Of a stretch of DNA of 64,000 nt, positions 1 to 29,954 are shown in pieces (the stretch's first letter is position 1; each line of letters opens with the position of its first letter). Under the pieces are notes generated by a model, which saw only the letters and a list, made by a program, of their open reading frames with translations, ran no database searches and was not told the DNA's origin. Both the position numbers and the translations under genes were made by a program. This DNA is from Salinivirgaceae bacterium. GTDB taxonomy: Bacteria; Bacteroidota; Bacteroidia; Bacteroidales; SZUA-534. The stretch lies in the NCBI GenBank assembly GCA_017650325.1, contig JAGCFC010000229.1:5637-69636 (forward strand), written 5' to 3'.

Positions 1-417
1 CCAGAGCATTGTGTCGGTGCGATATGGCGGCAGATAATGGATTTTGCGCCCCTTTCCCATCAATTCCGACAGCAATTTGGCCAAACCAGCCATCGGCTCG
101 CTGTGAGCCACGCCGCACGTTGCGGCAAAATCGGCCACCGACGGCAGCGGACCAGTCCACACCACATCGTCAATGTCGGCATCGTCGCCAAAAAGCCACT
201 CATCGCCCGACTCAAAATCGACAACCGCCGCCAGATTCGGTTTGCGCAATCCGAAAAAATAAAGGAAAGTGCTGTCCTGACGGAAGTTATAAGTGTTGTC
301 GGCATAGTTCATCGGAGACTCCGAATTGCCTAAAAATAGTCCCAAGCCTTTACCCATAGCCGTTCTCAACTTTGCTCGGCGGGCAACGTATGTGCCCCTT
401 GCAAATATTTCCTTCAT
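1..417 (-). CDS. Xaa-Pro aminopeptidase (M24B / aminopeptidase P family), N-terminal 139 codons; gene continues beyond window start
   Basis: Edge-truncated, so absent from the ORF track. Manual minus-strand translation from ATG (rc of 415-417): MKEIFARGTYVARRAKLRTAMGKGLGLFLGNSESPMNYADNTYNFRQDSTFLYFFGLRKPN... The NxYxFRQDSxFxY pattern is the hallmark of the aminopeptidase P/creatinase N-terminal domain. The frame stays open to base 1. Confidence 0.6.
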   Translation of the reverse strand, partial: MKEIFARGTYVARRAKLRTAMGKGLGLFLGNSESPMNYADNTYNFRQDSTFLYFFGLRKPNLAAVVDFESGDEWLFGDDADIDDVVWTGPLPSVADFAATCGVAHSEPMAGLAKLLSELMGKGRKIHYLPPYRTDTMLW

Positions 418-463
418 AACCGTATCTAAGTTTTGTTTGGCACGAATGTAGCAAAATATTAAC

Positions 464-490
464 CACGGAAAGCACGAAAAACACGGAAAG
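464..490 (+). repeat. three tandem 9-mers CACGGAAAG-CACGAAAAA-CACGGAAAG followed by AATG
   Basis: Read directly from the sequence. Same 9-mer family as the arrays flanking the GxxExxY gene at 63542-64000. Confidence 0.8.
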
Positions 491-525
491 AATGCAACCT
501 CCCTGCCACTTTGCCAATAATAGCT

Positions 526-533
526 TACTTTTG
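526..533 (+). promoter_or_regulatory. candidate Bacteroidetes -7 promoter box TACTTTTG (TAnnTTTG)
   Basis: Perfect match to the TAnnTTTG consensus, 23 nt upstream of the ATG at 557. Confidence 0.45.
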
Positions 534-556
534 CGGCCGTTTTAAATAAAAACAGA

Positions 557-811
557 ATGGAACCAATAGAAATTGTAGGCTACGCAGCCGCAGTGCTCAC
601 AACAATATCGTTTGTGCCGCAAGCCGCCAAAATCATCAAGACAAAAGACACCCAAAGTATCTCACTCGGAATGTACGCTCTGTTCTCAATCGGAGTGTTG
701 GGCTGGCTCATCTACGGCATTGTAACACGCACATTGCCAGTAGTTTTAGCAAACGGCATAACACTTTGTTTCGCCAGCGTTATCCTTGCCTACAAAATCA
801 AATACAAATGA
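557..811 (+). CDS. SemiSWEET / PQ-loop family sugar transporter (84 aa, 3 TM)
   Basis: Three hydrophobic helices and a PQ motif (SFVPQAAKIIKTK). The size is typical of bacterial SemiSWEETs. Confidence 0.8.
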   Translation: MEPIEIVGYAAAVLTTISFVPQAAKIIKTKDTQSISLGMYALFSIGVLGWLIYGIVTRTLPVVLANGITLCFASVILAYKIKYK

Positions 812-1155
812 ATTACGCATTCGGCTCCTATTATTATATGGTATGCCGATGGACAATCAGCCCTACTGATAAAATCATTCCCGTCAGAGCCAATTATTCC
901 ATCGGAAGAGCATTGCCTAATGCCGCAAACGGCGGTTTCGGAGTCGCATCGACAGGGAAAAAACACTTTTGAGAACATTTTCACAACACAAAATCCGACT
1001 GAATGTCAATCAATAGCCGCACCTCAACGACACAATGTTTTCAATCGTGCTAAATATTTTTTCCACAAAACTTTTTTATTTGCAAAAATTACTACTTTTA
1101 CAAATACGGTCATCGCAAAAAAGATGGTGCTGTGAAGGATTAGAATGAATATTGT

Positions 1156-1998
1156 ATGGTCACAAACGAAGATGCAGCGAGGTTAATTACAGCCATCAAG
1201 ATGTCGTCAACTTACGATTTCACAGACTATTCTGACAAATCGTTTTGCCGAAGGATTGAGAAAATATTGTTAGACAACAATATGGACCTCAATCAACTTA
1301 TAATTAAGATAGGCAAAGACAAGGATTTTCTGGAGCAAATGGTTAAAGACATAACGGTCAACACCACTGAGCTCTTCCGCAATCCCGAAATGTGGCAAAC
1401 ACTTCGTTATCACATACTTCCGAAATTCAGAAAGAACCGCTCGATATTCATTTGGCACGCAGGATGCTCAAGCGGTCAGGAGATTTACTCCATGCTCATT
1501 CTGCTCAACGAGTTGGGGATGTTCGACCAGGCCAAAGTGTTCGCCACCGACATCAACACCGACATGCTCGAAGCCGCCAAAGCCGGACAATACAAATATC
1601 GGTTCAATCTGGGTTATCTCGACAACTTCGACAAGGTGATAAAAGAAAACCCATTCAACTTCGAAGACAAGGTTGAGGTCCCTTACGAGAAGTATTTCGA
1701 TATCGACAAGGTGAAAGACACCATCCAGATGAAGCCGTTCCTGCGCGAAAAGGCTGTTTTCCGCAAGCACGATTTGGTGAAAGACGGCAACGTCTTCTAC
1801 TCAAAGTTCGACCTGATTTTCTGCCGCAACGTGATTATCTACTTCAACAACAAGTTGCAGAGCCGCGTTATCGACATGTTCAACAGCAGTTTGAACCGCG
1901 ACGGATACCTGATACTCGGGTCGCACGAAAGCATTTTGGGAGCCTCGGCCAACAACTTCGAGCGCTCTAAAGGTTTTTACAAGAAAAAACAGATGTAG
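1156..1998 (+). CDS. cheR: CheR-type protein-glutamate O-methyltransferase (canonical motifs)
   Basis: Has the CheR N-terminal helical domain plus SAM-binding signatures IWHAGCSSGQEIYS, VFATDINTDMLEAAKAGQY and FDLIFCRNVIIYF. Confidence 0.9.
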   Translation: MVTNEDAARLITAIKMSSTYDFTDYSDKSFCRRIEKILLDNNMDLNQLIIKIGKDKDFLEQMVKDITVNTTELFRNPEMWQTLRYHILPKFRKNRSIFIWHAGCSSGQEIYSMLILLNELGMFDQAKVFATDINTDMLEAAKAGQYKYRFNLGYLDNFDKVIKENPFNFEDKVEVPYEKYFDIDKVKDTIQMKPFLREKAVFRKHDLVKDGNVFYSKFDLIFCRNVIIYFNNKLQSRVIDMFNSSLNRDGYLILGSHESILGASANNFERSKGFYKKKQM

Positions 1999-2000
1999 TT

Positions 2001-2831
2001 ATGGTTGATAATATAGGCATAGTAGATACTCGGAATATTATCAGTGCTGTAACTGACGCTTACGGCATCGATATGTCGGATTATACATTCACGATACTCA
2101 AACGGAGGCTGATTCATGCCATAAACACCTTTGGCAGCCACTCGGCCGACGATTTCGCCGACAAAATCCGCAAAAAAATCATTACCGCCGACGATTTCCT
2201 TTACACCGTCTCACTCGAAGTGACTGAGTTCTTCCGCGACCCGTCGCTGTGGCGCGAGTTGCGCGACAAGTATATTCCGGAAATCTGCCGCACCACCGAC
2301 AGCCGTATCTGGATGCCATGCGTGACATCGGGCGACGAGCTGTTCTCGCTGGCAATCGTGCTGAACGAGGCCGGGCTGCAGGGCAAGACAAAAATCGATG
2401 CTCTTTGCCCGTCGCAAAAGCATATAGATCTTATCAAGAAAGGCGGCAACTACGACCAGAAGAAAATTGAGGTGAGCGAAGCCAACTATACACGGTACGT
2501 GGGCAAGACACAATTTGCATCGTACTACACACTCACCGACAACCGGGCCGAAATGAAACCGACATTGCTCAACGATGTGTCGATTGATGTGAACAGCGAT
2601 ATTCTGAACACCAGTATTGCCAAGAAATACAAAATGGTGGTTTACCGCAACAAACTGCTGCAATTCAACATTCCACTGTACGACAAGGTTATACGCAAAT
2701 TGATCGACAGCCTTGAAATTGGCGGCTATCTGGTGATTGGCAACATGGAAACACTTGAATATTCAGAGGCAAGCAAGAAATTGCAGATTGTGAACGCGAA
2801 CGAAAAAATTTACAAAAAAAGGGTTGACTGA
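2001..2831 (+). CDS. CheR-like paralogue with degenerate SAM-binding motifs
   Basis: Same length and N-terminal domain layout as the upstream CheR (EFFRDPSLWRELRDKYIP). The motif positions read IWMPCVTSGDELFS, IDALCPS and YKMVVYRNKLLQF. Starts 2 nt after the cheR stop. Confidence 0.75.
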   Translation: MVDNIGIVDTRNIISAVTDAYGIDMSDYTFTILKRRLIHAINTFGSHSADDFADKIRKKIITADDFLYTVSLEVTEFFRDPSLWRELRDKYIPEICRTTDSRIWMPCVTSGDELFSLAIVLNEAGLQGKTKIDALCPSQKHIDLIKKGGNYDQKKIEVSEANYTRYVGKTQFASYYTLTDNRAEMKPTLLNDVSIDVNSDILNTSIAKKYKMVVYRNKLLQFNIPLYDKVIRKLIDSLEIGGYLVIGNMETLEYSEASKKLQIVNANEKIYKKRVD

Positions 2832-3394
2832 TGAATGATTACAAAGCTATAATGATTGGAGGTTCGGCAGGTAGTTTTCAAGTAGTTACCCGAATAATTG
2901 CCGCATTGCCGGCAAACTATCCGCTGCCGATTCTGATGTGCCTGCACCGCTTGAAACACATCCGTTCGGGATTCGTAGAGGCACTTTCGATAAAATCGAA
3001 ACTGCCGATAATAGAACCTCACGACAAAGAGCCGCTCAAAGCCGGACGTATCTATCTTGCACCGGCCAATTACCACATGTACATTGAGTTAGGCAACCGA
3101 TTCTCACTCTCAACCGAAGACGTGGTCAACCATTCACGCCCGTCAATCGACTTGTCGTTCTTCTCGGCATCGTACAATTTCAAGAAGAAACTTGTGGGCA
3201 TCATATTGAGCGGTGCGAACAAAGACGGTGCCCTTGGTCTGAAAAGCGTGACCGACAACGGCGGTCTGACAATCGTTCAGGACCCCAAAGAATGCCAGGT
3301 ACCGACAATGACACAGGCGTCACTGAACGCAACAAAAGTAGATTATGTGTTCAGCACGAAACAGATTATTGATTTTTTACTTAAATTAGCCTGA
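2831..3394 (+). CDS. cheB: CheB-type protein-glutamate methylesterase, catalytic domain only (no receiver domain)
   Basis: 187 aa. Candidate Ser/His/Asp contexts are IMIGGSAGS, MCLHRLKH and SGANKDGALGL. The ATG overlaps the previous stop (TGATG at 2829-2833). Confidence 0.85.
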   Translation: MNDYKAIMIGGSAGSFQVVTRIIAALPANYPLPILMCLHRLKHIRSGFVEALSIKSKLPIIEPHDKEPLKAGRIYLAPANYHMYIELGNRFSLSTEDVVNHSRPSIDLSFFSASYNFKKKLVGIILSGANKDGALGLKSVTDNGGLTIVQDPKECQVPTMTQASLNATKVDYVFSTKQIIDFLLKLA

Positions 3395-3397
3395 TTT

Positions 3398-4153
3398 ATG
3401 GACGAACTTCTAAGATATCGGCAAAAAATAACAGGATGGACGATTCTCCTAATTGTCATCAGCATCGCCGCCATAATTATTATGCTAGCGGCCGCCCCGA
3501 ATTTTGGCAAAAACAGCTACGCCCTCATTCTCTTAGTGATTATTGTGGCGCAAATATTAATTGCTTCTAAAATCGGACTGATGGGGTCTAAAATCACATC
3601 AATCTATATGAAATCGGAAGAAGAGCGCGCCGCAGCCAGCCAAATCAACGATGACCAATACGAAAAGGAAGTCGACCAGAAGATGAAAGAAGCTACCGAT
3701 TCAGGGTTCGATCTGAAAGCCCTGCTCGACAAAACAGGCAAAAACGACGATTGGAAAAGTTTCGGCGATGCATTGCTTTATGCTTTTTCGAAACAAATGG
3801 ACGTTGCTGTCGGAATTGTTTTCAAATGCGATGACGACGAATTTAACGCAGCCGCCACATTCGCCTATTATAATAATGAATCGCCCCGGTCATTCAAACT
3901 GGGTGAAGGGCTCTCCGGACAAGTGGCAAAAGACCAAAAACCAATGTTTTTGAACGATTTACCGAGCAAAAGTTTGATGATTGTCTCGGGTCTTGGGCAA
4001 ATAGAAGTAAACAATTTGGCAATTATTCCAATTTTAAAGGACAACAATGCTGTTGGATTAATAGAAATTGCTACCTTTAAACCCTTTGAAAATGGATTTG
4101 TAAACAAAATAGACGAGATTTCTAATGCAATAGGCGGAATTGCCCCGCTATAA
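3398..4153 (+). CDS. membrane-anchored (2 TM) GAF-domain protein
   Basis: Two N-terminal TM helices (WTILLIVISIAAIIIMLAAA; YALILLVIIVAQILIASKIGLMG). The C-terminal GAF-like region (GEGLSGQVAKDQKPMFLNDLP...AVGLIEIATF) is paralogous to the GAF of the next gene. Confidence 0.7.
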   Translation: MDELLRYRQKITGWTILLIVISIAAIIIMLAAAPNFGKNSYALILLVIIVAQILIASKIGLMGSKITSIYMKSEEERAAASQINDDQYEKEVDQKMKEATDSGFDLKALLDKTGKNDDWKSFGDALLYAFSKQMDVAVGIVFKCDDDEFNAAATFAYYNNESPRSFKLGEGLSGQVAKDQKPMFLNDLPSKSLMIVSGLGQIEVNNLAIIPILKDNNAVGLIEIATFKPFENGFVNKIDEISNAIGGIAPL

Positions 4154-4166
4154 AGAGTGAAGCACA

Positions 4167-6794
4167 ATGGAAACGTTTATCGACAAAATAAAACGGATAT
4201 TTATATATAAGGTGAACAACAGGATAAACTTCACCCCCACCTTGGTTGGTTTGGGCGTGGTGATATTAATTCTGTCGTGGATTTTAGGGTTCATCAAATG
4301 CGACTACGCAGTATCGCTTGACAGCCTTGTACAATTACACAAGACATCACCTGTATACTTCATCATCGATCTTCTGCCTATAGTTTTAGGAATATTGGGG
4401 TATGCATTCACCAAATCGCAGCAAGAAACAATCGATTCACTTGAAACTCAGATTTCGGAAAAAGACCACGTCATCAACATGAACGCCCTCTTTGCCAAGA
4501 AGATTGGTGAAGGCGATCTTGCCGCAAACGACGCCGAAATTGACGACAACGACATCTTAGGCCACTCGCTGAAAAAAATGCGGGAGAACCTTGCTCTGAC
4601 TAACGAAAAAGAGAAAGAACAGAACTGGATTGCTAAAGGAAAAGATATGGTTTCCGACATCCTGCGTTTGCAAAACGACCTCGACAATCTGTCGTATCTC
4701 ACTTTGGTTGAACTCATTAAGTACATCGATGTCATTCAGGGTGCATTCTACATCTACAACGAAGAAGACCAAACACTTGAGAACAAAGCCACTTACGCCT
4801 ACAACCGCAGGAAATATCTCGACACAAAATTCCAAATTGGCGAAGGCCTTGTAGGACAGTGCGCCTATGAGATGGACGTCATCTACCGCCGCGAGATTCC
4901 AGATGAGTTTGTAACCATAACAAGCGGCATTTTGGGCGACAAAAAGCCAAATTCGCTGCTGTTGGTTCCCCTCATCACCGATGAGAAGCTACAAGGTGTG
5001 CTTGAATTTGCATCGCTGAAAGACGATATAAGCGAACTGAAAATCAGATTCTTGAAAGAGTTGAGCGACATTATTGCCCGCACAATCTTCAACCTTAAAG
5101 TAAACACCCGGACAGAAAAACTGCTGAAAGACGCGCAGGAAATGACCGAGGAACTTCAGGAGAACGAAGAAGAGTTGCGCCAGAATGCCGAGGAGATGCG
5201 CGCCACACACGAGGAGCTGGAAAAAACCAACTCGAATCTGCAAACGCAAATCCGCGCTGTCGAAAACGCTCAGAAGCGCCAGCATGCGTTGCTTGAAAAT
5301 GCATCCGAGATTATCTCGATTTATGACGAAGACTTGAAACTTAAATACATAAGTCCGTCAGTAACAAACATCTACGGATACACCATACAAGAAATGATTG
5401 ACGGAAAAGACATCGACCGTCTGACCGCCAAAGGAGTGAAAGAATTCACCGAGACGTTAGCCGAAGTTGTAAAAGATGCCAGTTCAACTGCCACCATCCA
5501 ATACACTTACATGCGTAAAGACGGACAGAAGATTTACATTGAATCGACATGCCGCAACTTGCTCGACGACCCCGCCATCAACGGACTTATTATAAACTCC
5601 CGCGATATCACCGAACGCAAACGCGCCGAGAAAGAGGAGCGTATGAAGAGTAAGATGCAATCGCTATCGGAAAACTCACTCGACTTGATTCTGCGAATCG
5701 GTACCAACGGACAGTTCTTCTACGCCAATCCTATGGTAAAAACATTCACCGGGATTGAAATTTCCGATATCATAAACAAGAATCTCGATGATGTTCAATT
5801 TGAACCGACCATCAAAGAATTCTTCAGCGATGCCGTAAAGACCGTACGAAGCACAAACAACAAACACGAGGCCGAAGTAACCTTCCCGACAAACTTTGGC
5901 GACCGCATTATGCAGGTAAACGCCATCCCTGAGTTCAGCGATGACAACAAAGAGTTGGAGACCATTTTGTTTGTGGCCCACGATATTACCGAGCAGAAGT
6001 TGGTTGAGATTGAAATTCAGGAGAAAAATAAGGCCATCACCGAGAGTATCAACTACGCAAAACGCATTCAAACTGCCATATTGCCGAACACCAAGTTCAT
6101 ACAAGAGTTCCTGCCGAAGTCATTCATCTTCTACCGTCCGAAAGACGTGGTCAGCGGTGACTTCCCATGGTTCTTCAAGAAAGGCGATGACTTGTTTATT
6201 GCAGTTGTCGACTGCACCGGACACGGTGTTCCTGGAGCTTTGCTGTCGTTCATTGGCTACTTCACTCTGAACAATGTGGTTGACCACTACGACAACATTG
6301 ACGCAGGTGTAATTCTCGACAAACTGCATGAAGGCGTCCGCACCACTCTGAAACAAGACCGAATCGACACCGAAGCTCGCGATGGTATGGATGTTGCACT
6401 CTGCAAAATAAACTTGAAGAAAAATATTTTGGAATTCGCAGGTGCCCACAGACCACTTTACTTGCTGAGAGGCAATGAGTTGACCCAATACAAGGGCAGT
6501 CATAAGGCTATTGGTGGCATACCATTAGGTAAAAAACCTGAAGCGGATTTTGAAAATCATTTAATAAATTTGGAGCCCAAAGACAGAGTGTTCTTCTTCT
6601 CCGATGGTTTACCCGACCAAGTGAGCGGCGAGACAGGACGGAAATATCAGGCAAGCCGTATTCGCGATTTGCTTGTGGAACACTATGATGTTGAAATTTA
6701 CGACTATGAAAAAATCATATACGATGATTTCATAGCCTACAAAGGCGACTATAAACAAGTCGATGATATATTGTTAATAGGAATTGAATTTTAA
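4167..6794 (+). CDS. SiaA-like sensor phosphatase: 2TM - GAF - Glu-rich coiled coil - PAS - PAS - PP2C/SpoIIE domain
   Basis: GAF (GEGLVGQCAYEMDVIYRREIP), coiled coil (EELQENEEELRQNAEEMRATHEELEKTNSNLQ), two PAS-like blocks and a SpoIIE signature (AKRIQTAILP...VSGDFPWFF...AVVDCTGHGVPGALLS...DGLPDQ). Confidence 0.85.
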   Translation: METFIDKIKRIFIYKVNNRINFTPTLVGLGVVILILSWILGFIKCDYAVSLDSLVQLHKTSPVYFIIDLLPIVLGILGYAFTKSQQETIDSLETQISEKDHVINMNALFAKKIGEGDLAANDAEIDDNDILGHSLKKMRENLALTNEKEKEQNWIAKGKDMVSDILRLQNDLDNLSYLTLVELIKYIDVIQGAFYIYNEEDQTLENKATYAYNRRKYLDTKFQIGEGLVGQCAYEMDVIYRREIPDEFVTITSGILGDKKPNSLLLVPLITDEKLQGVLEFASLKDDISELKIRFLKELSDIIARTIFNLKVNTRTEKLLKDAQEMTEELQENEEELRQNAEEMRATHEELEKTNSNLQTQIRAVENAQKRQHALLENASEIISIYDEDLKLKYISPSVTNIYGYTIQEMIDGKDIDRLTAKGVKEFTETLAEVVKDASSTATIQYTYMRKDGQKIYIESTCRNLLDDPAINGLIINSRDITERKRAEKEERMKSKMQSLSENSLDLILRIGTNGQFFYANPMVKTFTGIEISDIINKNLDDVQFEPTIKEFFSDAVKTVRSTNNKHEAEVTFPTNFGDRIMQVNAIPEFSDDNKELETILFVAHDITEQKLVEIEIQEKNKAITESINYAKRIQTAILPNTKFIQEFLPKSFIFYRPKDVVSGDFPWFFKKGDDLFIAVVDCTGHGVPGALLSFIGYFTLNNVVDHYDNIDAGVILDKLHEGVRTTLKQDRIDTEARDGMDVALCKINLKKNILEFAGAHRPLYLLRGNELTQYKGSHKAIGGIPLGKKPEADFENHLINLEPKDRVFFFSDGLPDQVSGETGRKYQASRIRDLLVEHYDVEIYDYEKIIYDDFIAYKGDYKQVDDILLIGIEF

Positions 6795-6811
6795 ATTAAA
6801 ACGACATAGCT

Positions 6812-7390
6812 ATGGATGGGAACAAAGACTTTCTAGAATTTGTCTATAGTTTTAACGAGTCGATGGAAAGCAAGGACGTTAAACTTGTTTACAAGGGAGA
6901 AATAACTCACCAAGTAACAAAAGCCTTTACATCGATAACCGAGACCAACATGATGGTTGCGGAAGAATCGAACTCCGTTCAGAAGAAGGTGTTCCATGTG
7001 ATTGTGGAATTTCTTCAGAACATAAGCAAACATGCCGACTACATGACCAACGAAGAAAGTCACGAAGAAGGCAGCGGAGTGTTCTTGCTTTGCAAAGACG
7101 ACGACAACTACGTCATTACAACTGGTAACGTGCTTCTCAAAGAAAAAGAGAATGCCATAGCCAACGTTCTTGACAAGATAAACTCGCTTGACAAAGAGGG
7201 ACTGAAAGCGCTGTACAAACAACAAATAAAAGAAGGTCGACTGTCAGAAAAAGGCGGTGCCGGCCTTGGTTTCATCGATATAGCAAAGAAGACTGGTAAT
7301 TCATTGGATTACAAATTTGTTCCCATCAACAATGAATTCTCATTCTTCATTATATCGTCGACCATTTCGAGAACTCAAAATTTTGATTAA
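6812..7390 (+). CDS. SiaB-family (HATPase-like) protein kinase
   Basis: 192 aa. The ATP-lid-like motif EKGGAGLGFIDIAKKTG and the overall pattern match what I recall of SiaB-family kinases. The position between a PP2C gene and a DUF1987 gene also fits. Confidence 0.75.
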   Translation: MDGNKDFLEFVYSFNESMESKDVKLVYKGEITHQVTKAFTSITETNMMVAEESNSVQKKVFHVIVEFLQNISKHADYMTNEESHEEGSGVFLLCKDDDNYVITTGNVLLKEKENAIANVLDKINSLDKEGLKALYKQQIKEGRLSEKGGAGLGFIDIAKKTGNSLDYKFVPINNEFSFFIISSTISRTQNFD

Positions 7391-7410
7391 CATATAATTA
7401 ATTTATTACT

Positions 7411-7794
7411 ATGGAAGTTATAAAGATTGTTGGAACGGATGATACTCCCAGTGTAACTCTTGATGTTGCAAACGAAATATTCGAAATATCAGGTAGGTCG
7501 TTGCCAGAAGATGTTGCTGTATTCTATGAGCCAATTCTCGACTGGATTGACCGCTATTCAGAAGAAGCATCCGGTAAAACCATTTTCAATTTCAAGTTGG
7601 TGTACTTCAACACAGCATCATCGAAAATGATTCTGGACATACTTCTGAAGTTGGAAGAGATGCACGAAGCAGGCAAAGACGTGCTTGTAAGATGGCATTA
7701 TCCTGAAGATGACGAAGATATGGAAGAGGCTGGCGAAGAGTACGCTGACATTGTTGATGTGCCTTTCGAGCAAATCAGCTATTCACTTGACTAA
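7411..7794 (+). CDS. DUF1987 / SiaC-family regulatory phosphoprotein
   Basis: 127 aa with GTDDTPSV..ISGRSLPEDVAVFYEPILDWI...YFNTASSK...WHYPEDDEDMEEAGEEY, the typical DUF1987 pattern. Thr68 lies in the YFNT motif (codon 7612-7614). Confidence 0.85.
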   Translation: MEVIKIVGTDDTPSVTLDVANEIFEISGRSLPEDVAVFYEPILDWIDRYSEEASGKTIFNFKLVYFNTASSKMILDILLKLEEMHEAGKDVLVRWHYPEDDEDMEEAGEEYADIVDVPFEQISYSLD

Positions 7795-7829
7795 CAAACA
7801 AGAGAACAGTTAAAACAAACAACTTTTAG

Positions 7830-10800
7830 ATGAGTGAAGAGATTCTGAAAGCCTTAATGCAACTGTTTGCAATCATTGCAAAACAGGACGGAGGCGTAAA
7901 AGATAGCGAGATCGACTTTGTCGAGAATTTCCTTACTTCGCAATTGAGTTCCGACTTTGTTGAGGAGTATCTGGCATTATTCTACAAGCACGTAGGCATA
8001 AAGGATCGTAATTCACTTCATGAAAATTCGGAAGAAGAGGTCAAACTCACCTCGGTTAAGGACTCTGTTAAGATTCTTGGTATTTGCAAGAAAATCAACA
8101 AGACCCTTACCCAACAGCAGAAGGTGGTTGTTTTGGTCAGATTGTTCGAATTGGTGGCAGCCGACAGGCAGTTCACCGACCAGCGAATGGCCATTATCAA
8201 CACCGCAGCCGAAGTATTTAACATCTCGCCCGAAGAATTCAAAAGCACTGAAGATTTTTGTCGTAAAGAGACTGTCAAAGAACTTGACATTCCAAACATT
8301 CTTATCATCAACGACAAAGAACTTGAACTTGAACAAGCCAAGCACATCCAGATTGAGGAACTCGACAAAGAACTTGTCATTCTTCAGATTAAGAGCGTCG
8401 ACCTTTACTTTACGAAGTATCTGGGCTCACACGAGCTTGTGCTCAACGGTCTGCCGATAAAAGGCAACAAAATTTATCTGTTCGCCAACGGTAGCGCCAT
8501 CCGTTTCCCGAAAGGCAAACCGGTGTACTACAGCGATGTGGTGTCGAAATATCTGTCGGACATCACGTCGGCAAAAGTCACTTACAACGTCAACGATCTG
8601 GAATTCAAGTTCAAGAATGGTGCTATAGGTCTGAGAAACATCAACTTGTCGGAAGAGCAAGGACGCCTTGTAGGTATCATGGGCGCCAGTGGTGCGGGCA
8701 AAACCACACTGCTCAACGTACTTACCGGCAACGAACGTCCGTCGAAGGGCGAAGTGCTGATAAACGGAATCAATCTGCACACCGAAAAGGAGAAGATGGA
8801 GGGCGTTATCGGCTACATTCCGCAAGACGACCTTCTGATTGAAGAACTCACCGTTTACGAAAACCTTTATTTCAACGCCAAGTTGTGTTTCAAGGACATG
8901 ACGGAGGAAGAGATAAAGGAACGTTGCGAGAAAACACTCGCAAACCTTGGCCTGCTCGACAGGAAAGACCTGAAGGTAGGCTCGCCACTGCACAAGACTA
9001 TCAGTGGTGGTCAGCGCAAACGACTTAACATTGCGCTGGAACTTATCCGAGAACCGCCAATCCTGTTTGTCGATGAGCCGACATCGGGCTTGTCGTCACG
9101 CGACTCTGAGAACGTAATGGACTTACTCCGCGAGCTTGCAATGAAGGGCAAACTCGTATTTGTCGTAATCCACCAGCCATCATCGGAAATCTACAAGATG
9201 TTCGATAAGATGGTTATCCTCGACACTGGCGGATACCTTATATATTATGGTAACCCTGTTGATGCAGTAACCTACTTCAAAAAGATTGACGGCCAACTCA
9301 ACGCTGATGTCGGCGAATGCCCATCGTGCGGTAACGTTAATCCGGAGCTCATCTTTAATATTATTGATGCTCAGGTGGTTGACGAATTCGGTAAATACAC
9401 CAACAAACGAAAAGTCACACCGCCCGAATGGGAAAAGAAACGCGAGCAGAGCATCATCAGTCAAACCGACCCGAAATTTCTTGAGAAATACGCCGAAGAG
9501 CAGGCTCGAATTGCCAAAGGCGATGAAGATGCTCAGGAAAAAGCAAAAGCACTGGAGCGTCTCGACTTAAAATTCCATGAAAAATACATGGAATGCGTTG
9601 AAAAAATCAAACTCAAAGACATTCACGAAACTCCGCCAAAATCACTCGATATTCCAGGGTGGTTCCAGCAAGTTAAGATTTATTTCAAACGCGATTTTCT
9701 GGCAAAAATCAGCAACACTCAATATCTGGTTCTGAATATACTCGAGGCTCCGGCTTTGGGATTAATTCTTTCGTTCCTAATCAGATACATTGCCGACCCC
9801 AACTCGAATGTTTACATATTCCGAGAGAATGCGAACATTCCAATCTACATTTTCATGAGCTTGATTGTGGCAATGTTCCTTGGTTTGATGGTGAGCGGCG
9901 AGGAAATATTCAAAGACCAGAAGATTCTAAATCGCGAGAAATTCTTGAATCTTAGCCGCTCGACATACCTTGTGGCCAAGATTTCGATTTTGTTCATCAT
10001 ATCGGCCATTCAATCGATATTGTTTGTGCTGGTTGCCAATTCAATACTAAGCGTTAGAGGATTATGGTTTGAATACTGGTGGGCAATGTTTACCATAGCC
10101 ACATTCTCGAATCTGGTGGGTCTGATATTGTCATCGACATTCAACTCGGCGGTTACCATCTACATTATGATTCCGCTTGTGATGATTCCGCAGATGGCTT
10201 TGGGCGGCGCCATGTTCAGTTTCGACAAGTTAAACCGCGCTATAGGTAGCATCGAAGGTGTGCCGCCAATTTGCGAATTCATTGCAACCCGCTGGGTATA
10301 TGAAGGTTTGATGGTCCGTCAATTCAAAGACAATGAATACGAGAAGAAATTCTACGATATCGATAAAGAGGTAAGCGTTGGCGATTTCAAGTCGACACAA
10401 TATCTGCCAGAATTGGAAGACCGTGTTGAATATTGCGCTTCGACAAAATTCCAAGAACTTACGTCAAAAGAGGATATTGAAGACTACAAATGGAAACTGG
10501 CGCTGCTCAAAAACGAATTGTCGAAAGAGATGGTTCGCGTGCCGGACATTGAATTCAACTATTTGGAAGACCTTACTCCCGAGAGATTCACTCCAGAAGT
10601 TGGAATTAACACACAGGAGTATATCCAAAAACTGAATAACTACTATTCGGACATGTGTGAGAATGCCAAAAACAAGAAGAACGCCATTATCGACTATTGG
10701 AACGAGAAGAATCCCAACTCACACAACCGCCTCAAACAGGCCTACCAAAACGAGGCTGTTGACGACATTGTTTGGAAATCGCTCGAAAAGACACTTGTCA

Positions 10801-11105
10801 AATCGTACAAAGACCATTTGATTCAAATGACAAAACCGATTTACGAGACTCCGTGGGCAAACAACATTTTCGACTATCGCGCACAATTCTACTCACCAGT
10901 CAAGTTCTTCCTGGGCCACGAGTTCAACACCTTCTGGTTCAACATGTGGGTGGTATGGCTTATGACAGCATTCTGCTACGTGGCATTGTACTACGACTGG
11001 CTGAAACGTGCAATGGACTTCTTCCCTGAACTAATAGGAAATCTGAAGAAACGAATTGCGACTTTGTTCAGTAAAAAGGCGGCAAAACAAGCCGTAGAGA
11101 AATAG
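7830..11105 (+). CDS. ABCG-like fused ATPase-permease with N-terminal TerB-like domain and long C-terminal extension
   Basis: TerB-like helices (LFAIIAKQDGGVKDSEIDFVENFL; LFELVAADRQFTDQRMAII), Walker A GASGAGKTT, signature SGGQRKR, Walker B ILFVDEPTSGL, an ABC-2-type 6-TM region and a terminal TM helix FWFNMWVVWLMTAFCYVALYY. Confidence 0.85.
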   Translation: MSEEILKALMQLFAIIAKQDGGVKDSEIDFVENFLTSQLSSDFVEEYLALFYKHVGIKDRNSLHENSEEEVKLTSVKDSVKILGICKKINKTLTQQQKVVVLVRLFELVAADRQFTDQRMAIINTAAEVFNISPEEFKSTEDFCRKETVKELDIPNILIINDKELELEQAKHIQIEELDKELVILQIKSVDLYFTKYLGSHELVLNGLPIKGNKIYLFANGSAIRFPKGKPVYYSDVVSKYLSDITSAKVTYNVNDLEFKFKNGAIGLRNINLSEEQGRLVGIMGASGAGKTTLLNVLTGNERPSKGEVLINGINLHTEKEKMEGVIGYIPQDDLLIEELTVYENLYFNAKLCFKDMTEEEIKERCEKTLANLGLLDRKDLKVGSPLHKTISGGQRKRLNIALELIREPPILFVDEPTSGLSSRDSENVMDLLRELAMKGKLVFVVIHQPSSEIYKMFDKMVILDTGGYLIYYGNPVDAVTYFKKIDGQLNADVGECPSCGNVNPELIFNIIDAQVVDEFGKYTNKRKVTPPEWEKKREQSIISQTDPKFLEKYAEEQARIAKGDEDAQEKAKALERLDLKFHEKYMECVEKIKLKDIHETPPKSLDIPGWFQQVKIYFKRDFLAKISNTQYLVLNILEAPALGLILSFLIRYIADPNSNVYIFRENANIPIYIFMSLIVAMFLGLMVSGEEIFKDQKILNREKFLNLSRSTYLVAKISILFIISAIQSILFVLVANSILSVRGLWFEYWWAMFTIATFSNLVGLILSSTFNSAVTIYIMIPLVMIPQMALGGAMFSFDKLNRAIGSIEGVPPICEFIATRWVYEGLMVRQFKDNEYEKKFYDIDKEVSVGDFKSTQYLPELEDRVEYCASTKFQELTSKEDIEDYKWKLALLKNELSKEMVRVPDIEFNYLEDLTPERFTPEVGINTQEYIQKLNNYYSDMCENAKNKKNAIIDYWNEKNPNSHNRLKQAYQNEAVDDIVWKSLEKTLVKSYKDHLIQMTKPIYETPWANNIFDYRAQFYSPVKFFLGHEFNTFWFNMWVVWLMTAFCYVALYYDWLKRAMDFFPELIGNLKKRIATLFSKKAAKQAVEK

Positions 11106-11178
11106 AAAAAGATTAACTAAAAATTATATAACAGAATAGCAAAAAAGGATTACTTTTATCGCGTTAAAAATAATTTAC

Positions 11179-12099
11179 ATGAATAGAAGAATTTTTACAG
11201 CAATTGCAATACTTATTGCAAGCGGTTCGCTACTGATGACAAACTGTCAGAGTGATAACAAGGCTAAGAAAAACGACGACTTCACCATTCCTGATTCAAT
11301 CTTCAAAGACAAACCTTTGATGATTTCGAAGGAAGCCATGAATGATATTATTGATAATATGTCATCGCCGGTTGAGATGGCCGCTTTGATTAAATCGACA
11401 GGTGTGCCATTCAATCAGAAATTCCTTGCATCGACAAGTAAGGTCGACAATCTGGACACCGACTTCAAACAAGCTTTGAACCTCGGTATTTATGGCTGCG
11501 ACCTCGGTTACTTGAACATGTATGAGAAGACCGGCTCGATTATCAGCAGCATGCAGGCTATCAAGAAATTGTCGGACCAATTGCGAATCGGGCACTTCTT
11601 CGATTTCAACACAATCAAACGTTTGGCAACCAACAACGAGAACATCGACTCGCTGATGTATATTTCGGTATCGAGCTTCAACAACATGGACGAATATCTG
11701 CGCGAGCACAACCGCAGCGATATCAGCTCGTTGCTTGTGACCGGCATGTGGATTGAGGGCATGTATCTGGCTTGCCAGGTTGTAAAGGAGAAACCAAACG
11801 AGACTCTTCGCGAGCGCATTGGTGACTCAAAAATAGTGTTGAATGACCTTCTCCTGATTCTGAAGAACTACAAATCGAACTCAGCGTTCGCCAATCTGGT
11901 TAAGGAAATTGAGAAAATCAAGAAAGAATATGATAATGTAACCATAATCGTTAAATCAGGCGAACCGGAAATGATAGAGATTGACGGCATGCTGATGTTC
12001 CAATCTCACGACGAACAGATTGTAGACATTTCGGATGAGACATTGGCAAAAATCATTGCATCAATCGAAAACACACGTTCAATGATAATCAACCTGTAA
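11179..12099 (+). CDS. lipoprotein of unknown function (paralogue of 35321-36157)
   Basis: Signal peptide plus Cys (ASGSLLMTNC). Clear similarity to the 35321-36157 product: SPVEMAALIK..VPF..QALNLGIYGCDLGY / SLLVTGMWIEGMYLAC versus SPLEMFIRMK..VPF..QAVNMGVYASDMAY / CLVVAGAWIESLYLCL. Confidence 0.7.
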   Translation: MNRRIFTAIAILIASGSLLMTNCQSDNKAKKNDDFTIPDSIFKDKPLMISKEAMNDIIDNMSSPVEMAALIKSTGVPFNQKFLASTSKVDNLDTDFKQALNLGIYGCDLGYLNMYEKTGSIISSMQAIKKLSDQLRIGHFFDFNTIKRLATNNENIDSLMYISVSSFNNMDEYLREHNRSDISSLLVTGMWIEGMYLACQVVKEKPNETLRERIGDSKIVLNDLLLILKNYKSNSAFANLVKEIEKIKKEYDNVTIIVKSGEPEMIEIDGMLMFQSHDEQIVDISDETLAKIIASIENTRSMIINL

Positions 12100-12100
12100 T

Positions 12101-12523
12101 ATGAAACACGCTCTCATAATAATATCAACACTTCTGCTTTCGTTAACCTGCAATCATGCTCTTGCACAAAGTGATGATTTGGTGAATGTATGTGCATTAG
12201 GTATCGGGAACGCCACATATTTGAAAGACTTCAAAGTGAAGTTGCCGGCCAACACTACTACTCCGCAAAAGCTAAGCGTTATTCTTACCAAAGGCATGAT
12301 ATACAAATTTGTAGTATGCAACGCCGAAGGTTACGAAGGAAAAGCAGTAATACAATTGTCGGATGCTGGAAATACTCTTGTTTCGAACTTGAAAGCTGAC
12401 GGTTCGTTTGTTGAAGCGGTTGGTTTTTCATGCCAGAAAACAGGTATGTACAACATCTTCTGCTCATTCAAGAACAACAAGGAAGGTGCGGCTGTGATAA
12501 TAATGTCGTACATAACAAAATAA
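12101..12523 (+). CDS. small secreted protein of unknown function (distant paralogue of 34691-35308)
   Basis: Signal peptide (LLLSLTCNHALAQ). Starts 2 nt after the previous gene. Shares the LSVILTKGMIYKFVVCNAE pattern with LNVVLYSKQNYRLFVACEQ in 34691-35308. Confidence 0.6.
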   Translation: MKHALIIISTLLLSLTCNHALAQSDDLVNVCALGIGNATYLKDFKVKLPANTTTPQKLSVILTKGMIYKFVVCNAEGYEGKAVIQLSDAGNTLVSNLKADGSFVEAVGFSCQKTGMYNIFCSFKNNKEGAAVIIMSYITK

Positions 12524-12544
12524 GTGCATAAAACACTGACAAAT

Positions 12545-12572
12545 AAAAGGATGTCAAAAGCATCCTTTTTTT
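12545..12572 (+). terminator. rho-independent terminator closing the 1156-12523 operon
   Basis: AAAAGGATG-tcaaaag-CATCCTTTT stem-loop followed by a T-run. Confidence 0.75.
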
Positions 12573-12590
12573 GTTTAATCGAAAAGTAAA

Positions 12591-13178
12591 ATGGACATTA
12601 CCGGAATAAAACGGATTATTGAGGACTCGATTGCCACAAAACAAGCCATTGTTAGCGGACAAACATTGATGCAGACAGCAAGTAAAATTGCCGATGCCAT
12701 AACGCTATGCTACCGTAATGGCGGGAAAGTGCTGTTTTGCGGTAATGGTGGCAGTGCTGCCGATGCGCAACATTTGGCTGCCGAACTGTCCGGCCGGTTC
12801 TATTTCGACCGTCCCCCACTCGATGCCGAAGCGTTGCACGTGAACTCATCGTACGTGACTGCTGTTGCCAACGACTATACATACGATGAAATATACTCGC
12901 GCTATGTAAATGGCGTTGGTAAAAAAGGCGATGTGCTGATAGGCATTTCAACTTCGGGTAACTCCGAAAACATTTTGCGAGCTTTGAAAGTTGCCAAAAG
13001 CAAAGGCTTGGTAACTGTTGCAATGACAGGCGAATCGGGCGGCAAGATGAAAGATGTGGTTGATTATCTGCTTAATGTACCATCGACCGACACGCCGCGC
13101 ATTCAAGAGGCACATATAATGCTGGGGCACATTTTCTGCCAGATTGTTGAAGAAGATTTGTTTGGCAATCACAAGTAA
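12591..13178 (+). CDS. gmhA: D-sedoheptulose-7-phosphate isomerase (SIS domain)
   Basis: FCGNGGSAADAQHLAAEL, GISTSGNS and the overall GmhA length and pattern. Confidence 0.9.
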   Translation: MDITGIKRIIEDSIATKQAIVSGQTLMQTASKIADAITLCYRNGGKVLFCGNGGSAADAQHLAAELSGRFYFDRPPLDAEALHVNSSYVTAVANDYTYDEIYSRYVNGVGKKGDVLIGISTSGNSENILRALKVAKSKGLVTVAMTGESGGKMKDVVDYLLNVPSTDTPRIQEAHIMLGHIFCQIVEEDLFGNHK

Positions 13179-22856: not shown

Positions 22857-24143
22857 ATGGATGCGCGAATGTTAGACAAACTCAAGATTCTGGCCGAGTC
22901 GGCAAAGTACGATGTGTCGTGCTCGTCGAGCGGGACAGTGCGCCGCAACAACGGCAAGGGCGTGGGCAACACCGTTGGCGGCGTGGGCATCTGCCATAGT
23001 TTTGCCGAAGACGGGCGCTGCATATCGCTGCTGAAAGTGATGCTCACCAACTACTGCATTTTCGACTGCGCCTACTGCGTCAACCGCCGCACCAACGATG
23101 TTCCGCGAGCCACATTCACACCCGCCGAGGTGGTTGAGATAACAATGGAGTTCTACCGCCGCAACTACATCGAGGGACTGTTTCTGAGTTCGGGTGTGAT
23201 GCAAAACGCCGACTACACAATGGAGCGGCTTGTGCGAGTGGTGAAAGACCTACGCGCGCAGCGGTTCAACGGCTACATCCACCTGAAAAGCATACCTGGA
23301 GCCAGCCAGCAACTGATAACCGAGGCGGGGCTGTATGCCGACCGAATGAGCGTCAACATTGAGATTCCGACCGAGAGCAACCTAAAAATGCTTGCGCCCG
23401 AGAAGAGTTACGAGAGCATATTCCAACCGATGAAAATCATTCATAAAGGTGTGCTCGAGAGTCACGAGGAACGCAGCCGATTCCGCTCGGCGCCACGTTT
23501 TGTGCCAGCCGGACAAAGCACTCAGATAATTGTCGGCGCCACCAACGACACCGACAAAGACATTCTGCGCCTGTCGTCGGCATTCTACCAGCGGCCGTCA
23601 ATCAGACGCGTCTATTATTCTGGATATGTGGCCGTTAACACCTACGACACTCGTCTGCCTGCCTTGAAGCAACCGCCGCTTGTGCGCGAAAACCGCCTCT
23701 ATCAGGCCGACTGGCTGATGCGGTTCTACAAATTCAAAGTGAACGAAATTGTCGATGACGCCAATCCGAACCTCGACCTCGATGTTGACCCCAAACTGGC
23801 TTGGGCGCTGCGCCACCCCGAGTTTTTTCCGGTCGATGTGAACACGGCTTGCTACGAGCACATTCTGCGCGTGCCGGGCATTGGTGTGAAATCGGCGATG
23901 CAGATTGTGGCCTCGAGGCGATACGGTGCACTTACTTTTCTACAACTCAAGAAGATAGGCGTGGTTCTGAAGAAAGCGAAATACTTCATCAACTGCCGCG
24001 AACTGCCCATAATGGGCACCATCAACGAGTTGAAACCCGAAAACGTGCGTTCACTGCTGGTGGCCAAACCCGCCAAAAAAGAAGCGGTTGGCCAACTAGA
24101 ACTGAACTTCGACCAGCCCGTTCAACTTGTAACACCTTATTGA
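22857..24143 (+). CDS. putative DNA modification/repair radical SAM protein (TIGR03916-type as I recall)
   Basis: Radical SAM cluster motif MLTNYCIFDCAYCVNR, a C-terminal helix-hairpin-helix-like ILRVPGIGVKSA, and adjacency to its usual partner gene. Confidence 0.85.
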   Translation: MDARMLDKLKILAESAKYDVSCSSSGTVRRNNGKGVGNTVGGVGICHSFAEDGRCISLLKVMLTNYCIFDCAYCVNRRTNDVPRATFTPAEVVEITMEFYRRNYIEGLFLSSGVMQNADYTMERLVRVVKDLRAQRFNGYIHLKSIPGASQQLITEAGLYADRMSVNIEIPTESNLKMLAPEKSYESIFQPMKIIHKGVLESHEERSRFRSAPRFVPAGQSTQIIVGATNDTDKDILRLSSAFYQRPSIRRVYYSGYVAVNTYDTRLPALKQPPLVRENRLYQADWLMRFYKFKVNEIVDDANPNLDLDVDPKLAWALRHPEFFPVDVNTACYEHILRVPGIGVKSAMQIVASRRYGALTFLQLKKIGVVLKKAKYFINCRELPIMGTINELKPENVRSLLVAKPAKKEAVGQLELNFDQPVQLVTPY

Positions 24144-24925
24144 TGAGCGAGTTCGCAGATACGGCCTTTGTCTACGACCAGACATTCGACGGCTTGCTGA
24201 CGTGCGTTTTCGATGCCTATCAGCTGAAAACATTTCCCACTCATCTGCTTGCCGCCAACGAGCCTGCTCCGTTGTTTTGCACTGTGGCTCATACAGTTAC
24301 AACCGACGAACAAAAATCAGTCCGTGTGTGGACCGCACTTGAGAAAAAACTATCGAAATCGGCTCTGCACAGCCTCACTGTAAGTTGGCTCGCAGATGGC
24401 ATTAGCGATGTAGACGAACTGATTTTCAGATATATCCGCAAAACGACCGATGCAAAAACAACCATCGAGACTAATTTTGGCGACCCCGATGTGCTGCGTC
24501 TGGCACAAGTGTATAAGCAGGTCAGCTATGAAGCGCACCGCATGCTGCAATTCGTGCGTTTTCAAAAGACCGCCGACGGCATTTATTTTGCCGCCTTCGA
24601 GCCGCGCCACAACGTGCTTCCGCTCACTCTCGACCATTTCAGCGACCGATTTTCCGACCAACAATGGATAATCTACGACCTTCAGCGCCAATACGGATAT
24701 ATGTATGATTTACACGATGTTAACCGCGTAACCTTTGCCAACAACACCAAATTCGGACGCGACGGGCGCCTCGACGCAAGCATTATGGACGCCGACGAGC
24801 AACTTTTTCAGTCGTTGTGGCGCACCTACTACAAGTCGATCGCCATCGAATCGCGCCGCAACCCGCGCAAAATGCGGCAGGACATGCCCGTGCGCTATTG
24901 GAAGCACCTGACGGAGAGACAATAA
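24143..24925 (+). CDS. TIGR03915-family putative DNA repair/metabolism protein (DUF4130, UDG-like partner of the radical SAM protein)
   Basis: Start MSEFADTAFVYDQTFDGLLTCVFDAY overlaps the previous stop (TGATG). The C-terminus reads LWRTYYKSIAIESRRNPRKMRQDMPVRYWKHLTE. The ORF-track 5' extension to 23801 overlaps the radical SAM gene. Confidence 0.8.
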   Translation: MSEFADTAFVYDQTFDGLLTCVFDAYQLKTFPTHLLAANEPAPLFCTVAHTVTTDEQKSVRVWTALEKKLSKSALHSLTVSWLADGISDVDELIFRYIRKTTDAKTTIETNFGDPDVLRLAQVYKQVSYEAHRMLQFVRFQKTADGIYFAAFEPRHNVLPLTLDHFSDRFSDQQWIIYDLQRQYGYMYDLHDVNRVTFANNTKFGRDGRLDASIMDADEQLFQSLWRTYYKSIAIESRRNPRKMRQDMPVRYWKHLTERQ

Positions 24926-24958: not shown

Positions 24959-25543
24959 TCAGTTTCCGTTTTTGTCTTCAGTCTTCATTTTCAAAAAACA
25001 GCTGCGGCAAAGCGGCTCGTAGCTGTCGGTTTCGCCAAGAAGGACAAGTTTGTCGGTTTTGGCAAGACGATGCGAAAACTGCGCCAGCGCACCGCAGCGA
25101 ACGCATACGGCGTGAACTTTAGTCACATCGTCAGCAATGGCCATAAGTTTGGGAATCGGGCCGAAAGGCTTACCCGTATAATCCATATCGAGTCCAGCCA
25201 CAATAACACGCACGCCGCTGTTGGCCAACTGGTTGCATACATCAACAAGGCCATCGTCGAAGAATTGAGCCTCATCGATACCCACAACCTGCACACCACT
25301 TGCCAAAAGCAGAATGTTTTGTGCGCTATCCACCGGTGTGGACGAAATAGAATTGTCGTCGTGCGACACCACATTCACTGCCGAATAACGGACATCGACA
25401 GTGGGCTTGAAAATTTCGACACTCTGCCGAGCAAATTTTGCACGTCGTAAACGGCGAATCAGTTCTTCGGTTTTGCCCGAAAACATTGAGCCACAAATAA
25501 CTTCGATTCTTCCGCCGTCGGCATTGCCACTTTCCAAAAACAT
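24959..25543 (-). CDS. tdk: thymidine kinase
   Basis: [19 protein letters not shown]-loop and C-terminal Cys pairs (AVCVRCG...CRSC). Confidence 0.95.
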
Positions 25544-25592
25544 ATCAGTACAAAAAATTAGGTGTGCGACAATTCTTATTTTAAGTTATCGT

Positions 25593-25600: not shown

Positions 25601-25625
25601 GCAAAATAAATCTTTATCGAAAGCG

Positions 25626-29948: not shown

Positions 29949-29954
29949 GAACTA

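Follow-up and report, generated by a model that had tools for sequence, protein, structure and literature searches.

What do a chemotaxis-type methyltransferase and methylesterase modify where no chemoreceptor gene lies nearby? The question is raised by a 64,000-nucleotide stretch of the genome of a Salinivirgaceae bacterium (Bacteroidota; GenBank assembly GCA_017650325.1, contig JAGCFC010000229.1, positions 5,637 to 69,636, forward strand), referred to below at its full length as the window and numbered from its first letter. Near one end of it, cheR and cheB genes run directly into genes for a membrane phosphatase and its SiaB- and SiaC-type partners. Methylation by CheR and CheB is a textbook mechanism of sensory adaptation and, to our knowledge, is almost always discussed within chemotaxis, the single studied exception being the RsbM/RsbK pair of Bacillus cereus. 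Our analysis suggests that sensory adaptation by methylation serves a purpose other than swimming here, because a conserved cluster joins the methylation enzymes to a phosphatase switch and an ABC transporter. We read the ten genes as a Bacteroidia signalling-and-transport operon that would act as a methylation-tuned partner switch, and rate this chain, taken as a whole, a shade above even.

The seven open reading frames (ORFs) on which the initial annotation was built were found exactly as described, all on the + strand: a canonical CheR, here CheR1 (1156-1998), a divergent one, CheR2 (2001-2831), a CheB (2831-3394), a small GAF protein with two transmembrane (TM) segments (3398-4153), the sensor phosphatase (4167-6794), a SiaB-family protein kinase (6812-7390) and a SiaC-family (DUF1987) phosphoprotein (7411-7794). 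They are separated by 2, -1, 3, 13, 17 and 20 nt, the negative value being the overlap TGATG between the CheR2 stop and the CheB start, read directly from the sequence at 2829-2833; Pfam and NCBIfam profile searches bore out the domains assigned to the seven products. The end of the unit at 7794, on the other hand, did not stand. After 35 nt more there follows, on the same strand, a gene for a fusion of TerB, ABC ATPase and ABC-2 permease domains (7830-11105), then genes for a conserved lipoprotein (11179-12099) and a conserved small secreted protein (12101-12523), giving a ten-gene cluster at 1156-12523, all + strand. A terminator-like hairpin with a 10-bp stem and a T-rich tail lies 22 nt past the stop of the tenth gene (12545-12579, + strand), and the other + strand terminator-like sites within the cluster are weaker and lie inside coding sequence. 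Because the ten-gene unit is conserved and this hairpin follows it so closely, the right boundary of the cluster should be moved from 7794 to about 12580.

The conservation of gene order in related genomes, a check that the initial annotation had called for, was surveyed by a CheB-anchored scan with one genome per species. The scan returned 545 encoded relatives. Those examined were the best 80, no two from one species, and they include Salinivirgaceae, Marinilabiliales, Bacteroidales and Rikenellaceae from rumen, sediment and groundwater; what is said below of 80 genomes or species refers to these best 80 of 545. The cluster was present in 80 of the 80 genomes, its gene order unchanged over whatever part the contig covers, and every locus with enough flanking sequence contained all ten genes: CheR, CheR', CheB, the 2TM-GAF protein, the sensor phosphatase, SiaB, SiaC, the TerB/ABC/ABC-2 transporter, a protein of about 300 amino acids and one of about 140. 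An arrangement shared in this way by all the species sampled is far beyond chance, and the cluster occurs in at least 80, probably several hundred, species of Bacteroidia. Homologs of the small GAF protein led to the same arrangement. Around ever more distant homologs (loci L007, L009 and L011) the ten genes recur in unchanged order: in another Salinivirgaceae genome, at 44% identity, in a further genome, and in Flammeovirga kamogawensis (L011) of the Cytophagales. The Flammeovirga locus has one CheR only and a phosphatase with a periplasmic dCache domain. Two further distant representatives, L096 and L097, retain the CheB-GAF-phosphatase core. In loci L049 and L071, the block running from the phosphatase through SiaB, SiaC and the ABC protein to the lipoprotein and secreted protein is inverted relative to the CheR-CheR'-CheB-GAF block, and the two are adjacent nevertheless; that they have stayed side by side points to two sub-modules which selection keeps together.

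One departure from this plan was an additional gene between both CheR genes, found in about 32 of the genomes (loci L051, L053-L064, L066-L069, L073-L077, L080 and L083-L091; for example L088:6933-9158). Its product is a paralogous sensor that lacks an output domain and is made up of a large periplasmic region, a TM segment, HAMP and GAF domains, a helix and either one or two PAS domains. In this architecture it resembles a methyl-accepting chemotaxis protein (MCP) without the kinase-control tip.

Are the methylation enzymes intact? CheR1 matches the Pfam CheR family at 2.4e-41 (141.7 bits for the S-adenosylmethionine (SAM)-binding domain, against a gathering cutoff of 27) and can be aligned to the CheR structures of Bacillus subtilis and Pseudomonas aeruginosa. 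The motifs AGCSSGQE, ATD132IN, D206, D219 and CRNVIIYF vary hardly or not at all among 78 orthologs, and CheR1 is therefore predicted to be an active protein-glutamate methyltransferase. The 'divergent CheR' of the initial annotation is indeed the weaker match (CheR 2.4e-18, 66.7 bits; CheR_N 2.6e-5), and it is probably not an enzyme at all. In class I methyltransferases the acidic residue of motif II binds the ribose of SAM, and the position equivalent to D132 is Cys, Ser, Tyr or Thr, never acidic, in 79 of 79 CheR2 orthologs; the equivalent of D219 is Lys, Arg or His, and the SAM pocket is relaxed in general. Of the enzymes in the cluster CheR2 is conserved least (0.55); it retains the TE[ML]FRDPxxW segment and the N-terminal domain. 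The loss of the ribose-binding Asp leads us to regard it as a degenerate, non-catalytic paralog, probably a pseudo-enzyme or adaptor.

In CheB, the CheB_methylest domain (1.5e-47; 162 bits against a cutoff of 24) spans the whole 187-residue protein, so that the Pfam search, in which the catalytic domain covers the protein end to end, leaves no receiver domain; among the matches listed (top 120 clusters), homologs are of similar size, 181-214 amino acids and mostly about 186. Alignment with the structures 1chd and 3sft places the catalytic triad at the Ser of GGSAGS, the His of CLHRL and the Asp of NKDG, all invariant in 26 homologs, and with orthologs 70-97% identical, CheB ranks among the best-conserved products of the cluster. 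A CheB catalytic domain on its own is active without the receiver domain, and the cluster enzyme, a methylesterase/deamidase, is therefore expected to be constitutively active. We consider it likely that CheR and CheB act on some product of their own cluster.

Which product, then? The sensor phosphatase, of 875 amino acids, has two TM segments with a short loop, a HAMP-like segment, a GAF domain, a coiled-coil helix of about 75 residues, two PAS domains and a C-terminal PP2C domain, a SiaA-like output. Pfam recognized GAF_2, both PAS domains and SpoIIE (2.7e-18, 67 bits), and neither HisKA nor HATPase; the NCBIfam SiaA equivalog model scored 177 bits against a cutoff of 700, over the C-terminal 260 amino acids only. 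The metal-binding Asp residues of the PP2C domain are invariant in a four-way alignment. The HAMP-like assignment draws on the paralogous sensor, which matches the TM2-HAMP region of Tsr and, in L090, the Pfam HAMP family (E=0.001). The most conserved non-catalytic part of the phosphatase is the helix after the GAF domain, where residues 327-355 (5145-5231, + strand), reading TEELQEN-EEELRQN-AEEMRAT-HEELEKT-N, are near-invariant in 71 species. They contain four Glu pairs, one every seven residues, with Glu329, Glu336, Glu343 and Glu350 as the second members.

In MCPs it is the second Glu of a pair that is methylated, and the consensus for methylation in the enteric MCPs, E-E-x-x-A-S/T, is fitted by the AEEMRAT heptad. 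When 11 cluster protein families were scanned for conserved sites of the form [EQ][EQ]xx[ASTG][ASTG], the only matches were the phosphatase helix and its counterpart in the paralogous sensor, which shares the helix core EQEEEMRQNMEE[LM]xATQEE. Position 336 flips between Glu and Gln about 11 times on the tree within Bacteroidales, while neighbouring columns change 0-3 times, as expected of a site deamidated by CheB. In distant orthologs the first Glu of the pairs is lost and the second mostly kept (E343 always, E350 as Glu or Gln, E329 mostly as Glu), as would be the case for residues methylated in the manner of MCPs. The precedent of RsbK, methylated at the same position directly after HAMP-GAF, raises the prior for this helix as substrate (PMC4574943). 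The post-GAF helix of the phosphatase is thus our best candidate for the methylation site, and a reasonably likely one.

The initial annotation had proposed both GAF proteins as substrates, and of these only the phosphatase has a conserved candidate site. The small GAF protein (GAF_2 1.3e-10), with two hydrophobic segments and a loop of about six residues, as read from the sequence, is a candidate accessory sensor or partner. Its gene is the fastest-evolving of the cluster (0.41), and yet always stands between those for CheB and the phosphatase and goes with CheR/CheB when the cluster is split, a constancy that would suit a methylation substrate. The Glu-rich linker between TM2 and GAF, with the juxtamembrane sequence KSEEERAAAS, also looked promising as a methylation site, but its sequence is conserved in close relatives only. 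SiaC, SiaB and the TerB domain of the transporter are other conceivable substrates, SiaC having conserved acidic pairs; none of the cluster proteins other than the phosphatase, however, has a conserved EExx[small][small] site, and the RsbK precedent again points to the post-GAF helix. That the substrate is one of these other products is, in our view, rather unlikely.

If the phosphatase is the methylated protein, its output would pass through SiaB and SiaC. The kinase belongs to the NCBIfam SiaB_fam_kinase family (NF038262, 163.5 bits against a cutoff of 85; Pfam DUF6272, 6e-41) and aligns to P. aeruginosa SiaB (6kko_A, 3e-16). SiaC, the most conserved protein of the cluster (0.83), matches Pfam SiaC (PF09345) at 1.6e-41 (141 bits against a cutoff of 24.5) and aligns over its full length to P. 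aeruginosa SiaC (6kko_C, 1e-18), with YFNT68 opposite YLNT, so that Thr68, encoded at 7612-7614, is the predicted phospho-acceptor. Both proteins miss the cutoffs of their equivalog models (SiaB, NF038264, 90 against 225; SiaC, 90.9 against 150), as does the phosphatase, and there is no SiaD; we therefore class the three as family members, not orthologs, of the Pseudomonas pathway. In one groundwater Bacteroidia metagenome-assembled genome (L078:1-5000) an extra pair, a SiaB-like protein of 374 amino acids and a SiaC, is encoded directly upstream of CheR1.

The SiaC of P. aeruginosa, when unphosphorylated, binds SiaD and activates it, and DUF1987 proteins have been suggested to regulate the products of adjacent genes (PMC8457831). 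In our cluster the gene directly 3' of SiaC, in every locus with enough flanking sequence and also in Flammeovirga and L096, encodes the TerB-ABC protein (TerB 5.8e-9, ABC_tran 4.5e-35, ABC2_membrane 8.8e-20), an ABCG-like half transporter of 1000-1100 amino acids across loci, always followed by the lipoprotein and the secreted protein, and it remains with phosphatase, SiaB and SiaC when the cluster is split. This constant adjacency, together with the suggestion made for DUF1987 proteins, leads us to propose the TerB-ABC exporter, rather than a diguanylate cyclase, as the likely output of the switch. The lipoprotein (306 amino acids, a signal peptide with the lipobox LMTNC, no Pfam family) has 1786 homologs, all annotated as hypothetical, and is syntenic in 65 loci; its AlphaFold2 model (mean predicted local distance difference test score, pLDDT, 78) is a helical bundle with a small beta domain, for which Foldseek gave no PDB match with E below 0.4. 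The secreted protein (140 amino acids, N-terminal signal peptide, no Pfam match) is syntenic in 63 loci.

In another reading, methylation of the phosphatase would proceed as we propose, but the target of SiaC would be an unlinked one, for example a diguanylate cyclase or transcription factor, and the transporter genes would be no more than co-transcribed cargo. The sole characterized SiaC does act on a cyclase (PMC8457831), the contact between SiaC and the transporter is deduced from adjacency, and the transporter has no recognizable phospho-Thr-binding (FHA) domain, residues 141-262, which we had considered as an FHA-like reader, finding support neither in a PDB profile search nor in Pfam. 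Against this stand the unbroken SiaC-transporter succession, the absence of GGDEF proteins from the window (Pfam) and from about 95 fetched loci, and the extra N-terminal cytoplasmic domain of the transporter (TerB), which suits a regulated protein. An unlinked target seems improbable to us, about as much so as a substrate other than the phosphatase.

Could CheR1 and CheB simply be ordinary chemotaxis enzymes whose MCP substrates are encoded in another part of the genome, so that they neighbour the switch by accident or for co-regulation only? Both have canonical active sites, and chemoreceptors do exist in some Bacteroidetes (PMC7390727). The initial annotation described the module as chemotaxis-free, and within the window this holds: a Pfam survey of about 50 ORFs, namely those of the cluster and 40 others, gave no match to MCPsignal, CheA, CheW or GGDEF or to any flagellar or pilus family. 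An MCP signalling domain hidden in either GAF protein would have told strongly against it, and there was no MCPsignal match at E<=0.1 within 3398-6794 or in the paralogous sensor. Searches of the fetched loci, covering 10 kb on each side in the 80 genomes, with phmmer and with Tsr and CheW sequences as queries likewise found no MCP or CheW; CheA was probed there solely through a generic HATPase consensus and the CheW-like domain. A local screen for REC domains is not relied on, as it was insensitive: a CheY query missed a REC-LytTR protein that Pfam detected. The description thus stands for the window and the neighbourhoods and does not extend to whole genomes.

For the chemotaxis reading to be correct, the ten-gene order would have to have been kept in 80 species, and adjacency kept through inversion, without functional reason, and the CheB, having no receiver domain, could not be wired to CheA. 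Early genome censuses, moreover, found no MCPs in the Bacteroidetes sequenced at the time (PMC1183210). The conserved order (in the 80 species and in Flammeovirga), the adjacency that survives inversion, the receiver-less CheB and the lack of MCP and CheW in the window and loci together support the view that the PP2C/SiaB/SiaC switch, rather than a chemotaxis core, is what CheR/CheB are functionally tied to, and we judge the chemotaxis alternative very unlikely. Least probable of all, to the point of being barely credible, is that the CheR and CheB genes are relics serving as scaffolds without any enzymatic role, for although CheR2 has clearly lost its SAM-binding residues, few products of the cluster are as well conserved as CheR1 and CheB, whose catalytic residues are invariant over about 80 species.

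Our preferred reading, the methylation-tuned partner switch, may be set out as follows. The membrane phosphatase would use its GAF and PAS domains to sense cues from the cytoplasm or the membrane, possibly with a contribution from the small 2TM-GAF protein or the paralogous periplasmic sensor. CheR1 would methylate, and the constitutive CheB demethylate or deamidate, Glu and Gln residues on one face of the dimeric GAF-PAS helix, with E343, E350, E336 and E329 as candidates, much as in the adaptation helices of MCPs and the S-helix of RsbK. Because both enzymes would favour particular conformations of the helix, methylation would reset the phosphatase after a stimulus and so provide adaptation or memory without CheA. 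CheR2, as a docking or regulatory subunit, would probably bind the substrate or CheB. The PP2C domain and the SiaB-family kinase would then set the phosphorylation state of SiaC Thr68, and one form of SiaC would bind and regulate the adjacent TerB-ABC exporter, which may work with the lipoprotein and its secreted partner. The idea of a methylation module placed on a phosphatase switch, as first formulated, is supported in part, as regards the tie between the genes, and has to be extended to the transporter, corrected as to CheR2 and the small GAF protein and tempered by the RsbK/RsbM precedent and the local reach of the MCP searches.

Several observations weigh against this reading, beyond the chemoreceptors of some Bacteroidetes and the local reach of our MCP searches. 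The analysis establishes gene content, conservation and the condition of the active sites; we infer every functional arrow of the chain, and all its steps, from sequence, and the link from SiaC to the ABC protein is one of gene adjacency alone. Locus L096 has a single CheR and no SiaB gene between phosphatase and SiaC (9211-9361). Toggling restricted to Glu and Gln, which we had taken as a unique mark of position 336, is not unique to it, a control having found it in 5 of 4199 columns, that is, at 336 and in four other cluster columns. Most Glu pairs are not flanked by the small residues that the MCP consensus calls for, and homology of the helix to the methylation helix of Tsr had to be dismissed, since the alignment was not significant and only the TM2-HAMP region of the paralog matches. 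Nor is the motif specific to CheR/CheB contexts. A HMMER scan with the 77-residue helix gave 428 protein-cluster representatives, many of them Cytophagales proteins of the GAF-[helix-PAS]n type, in which the motif is repeated 3-9 times, and others PAS-rich kinases or phosphatases; none of the best 150 representatives had a CheR or CheB domain, which disposed of the idea that CheB/CheR fusion kinases carry the helix, and no CheR/CheB genes lay beside genes for the multi-motif proteins in the three neighbourhoods examined. As a standalone HAMP-GAF-PAS-PP2C homolog without CheR/CheB also keeps E343, conservation of the motif could be purely structural.

The long Cytophagales proteins, exemplified by P0157, P0158, P0164 and P0174 (loci L093-L095), consist of a GAF domain and 4-9 repeats of an EEELRQNMEELxATQEE helix plus PAS, have no output domain and are often encoded beside sensor-less histidine kinases; they could be methyl-accepting scaffolds or mere structural repeats. 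We doubt that the pre-PAS helix EEE[LM]RQN[AM]EE[LM]xATQEE is a general, portable methyl-accepting module. Were it so, adaptation of the CheR/CheB type would be widespread among non-chemotactic sensors, and stand-alone or fused CheR and CheB proteins would serve many sensors in trans.

A few other features of the window may be recorded. Upstream of the cluster, about 55 nt before CheR1, the sequence TTTG ... TAcTTTTA (1070-1105, + strand) was picked out by eye, with low confidence, as a possible Bacteroidetes-type promoter, for which the consensus is TTTG at -33 and TAnnTTTG at -7. A sigma-70 promoter scan, ill-suited to Bacteroidota, found 25 sites against 22.6 expected from shuffled sequences, which is not above expectation. 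Rfam gave no match at E<=0.1 in positions 1-13000; in positions 1-360 several ORFs of either strand overlap, their translations odd and rich in Arg and Pro, and no gene is obvious. A second SpoIIE/PP2C protein (43204-45504, - strand, 766 amino acids, SpoIIE 3.8e-18) is encoded between two porin genes (Porin_O_P, 41983-43173, and Porin_10, 45672-47786), with no SiaB, SiaC or STAS partner evident nearby. A REC-LytTR response regulator is found at 27378-28145, and a 413-residue ORF two genes upstream (25401-26642), with no Pfam match at 1e-6, might be its kinase. At 22857-24925 the listed frames of a radical-SAM ORF and a DUF4130 ORF overlap by about 340 nt, the true start of the second gene probably lying further downstream, and at 29484-30953 there is a gene pair for NfeD and the flotillin-like FloA (7.6e-165).

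What would the cluster add to present knowledge? It would offer a complete, reversible CheR/CheB pair dedicated to a non-MCP sensor, which would be the first such assignment, and a short signal path from helix methylation through PP2C activity and SiaC-Thr68 phosphorylation to an ABC exporter. If the proposal is correct, a Ser/Thr partner switch can acquire adaptation or memory through Glu methylation, the SiaC family has a second type of target and dead CheR paralogs have a defined role. The system would also allow a direct test of whether CheA-independent, conformation-dependent methylation alone yields adaptation, and the cluster is very widespread, uncharacterized and directly testable. 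We found no description in the literature of CheR/CheB with SiaABC, of DUF6272 or of a SiaC system in Bacteroidota. The principle itself, CheR-type methylation of a non-MCP sensor helix above a PP2C switch, is already known from RsbM and RsbK (PMC4574943), and the novelty is lower for that reason.

How, finally, does the cluster compare with systems that are better understood? Classical chemotaxis adaptation shares with it the intact CheR and CheB active sites and, if our candidate is correct, a coiled coil of heptad-spaced Glu pairs, one of them E/Q-polymorphic, placed after a HAMP-like element. The differences are that an MCP signalling domain, CheA, CheW and CheY were not found in the cluster, that its CheB has no receiver, that the helix would link GAF to PAS in a parallel arrangement, in contrast to the antiparallel four-helix bundle of MCPs, and that the output is a Ser/Thr phosphatase. 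For the transporter, the nearest parallel is Mycobacterium tuberculosis Rv1747, an ABCG-type exporter in which N-terminal FHA domains mediate regulation by Ser/Thr phosphorylation. Both are fusions of an ABC ATPase and an ABC-2 permease with an extra N-terminal cytoplasmic regulatory region and a connection to Ser/Thr phospho-signalling, but the cluster protein has a TerB-like N-terminus in which no FHA domain was detected, and its regulation would run through the SiaC adaptor.

The switch itself has its counterpart in P. aeruginosa SiaABCD, where a membrane PP2C phosphatase, a SiaB-family kinase and a DUF1987 protein with Thr68 are encoded in the same order (PMC8457831). In place of the GGDEF protein SiaD, however, the cluster has the TerB-ABC gene after SiaC; its phosphatase has GAF, helix and two PAS domains, where P. 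aeruginosa SiaA has a periplasmic domain and HAMP; and the Pseudomonas operon includes neither CheR/CheB nor the ABC module.

For the combination of methylation with a partner switch, it is B. cereus that provides the comparison. There, RsbK has the architecture CHASE3-HAMP-GAF-S-helix-kinase-REC, and methylation of its S-helix by the CheR-type RsbM, which has no cognate esterase, controls the PP2C phosphatase RsbY and the RsbV/RsbW partner switch (PMC4574943, PMC12848376); a genomic association of RsbK-type kinases with CheR is among the work cited in PMC12848376. The likeness, known on the Bacteroidota side from sequence, lies in a CheR-type gene beside a non-MCP membrane sensor, in a HAMP-GAF unit followed by a signalling helix and in a switch composed of PP2C phosphatase, kinase and phospho-adaptor. 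RsbK, though, being a hybrid histidine kinase, passes its signal on to a distinct REC-PP2C protein, whereas the cluster sensor is fused to its PP2C domain through two PAS domains, and the orphan RsbM contrasts with a CheR1 accompanied by a dedicated receiver-less CheB and a second, degenerate CheR. In B. cereus the pathway leads through RsbW and the STAS protein RsbV to sigma-B, while in the cluster SiaB and SiaC take their place and an ABC exporter, rather than a sigma factor, follows; the one system belongs to the Bacillota and the other to the Bacteroidota.

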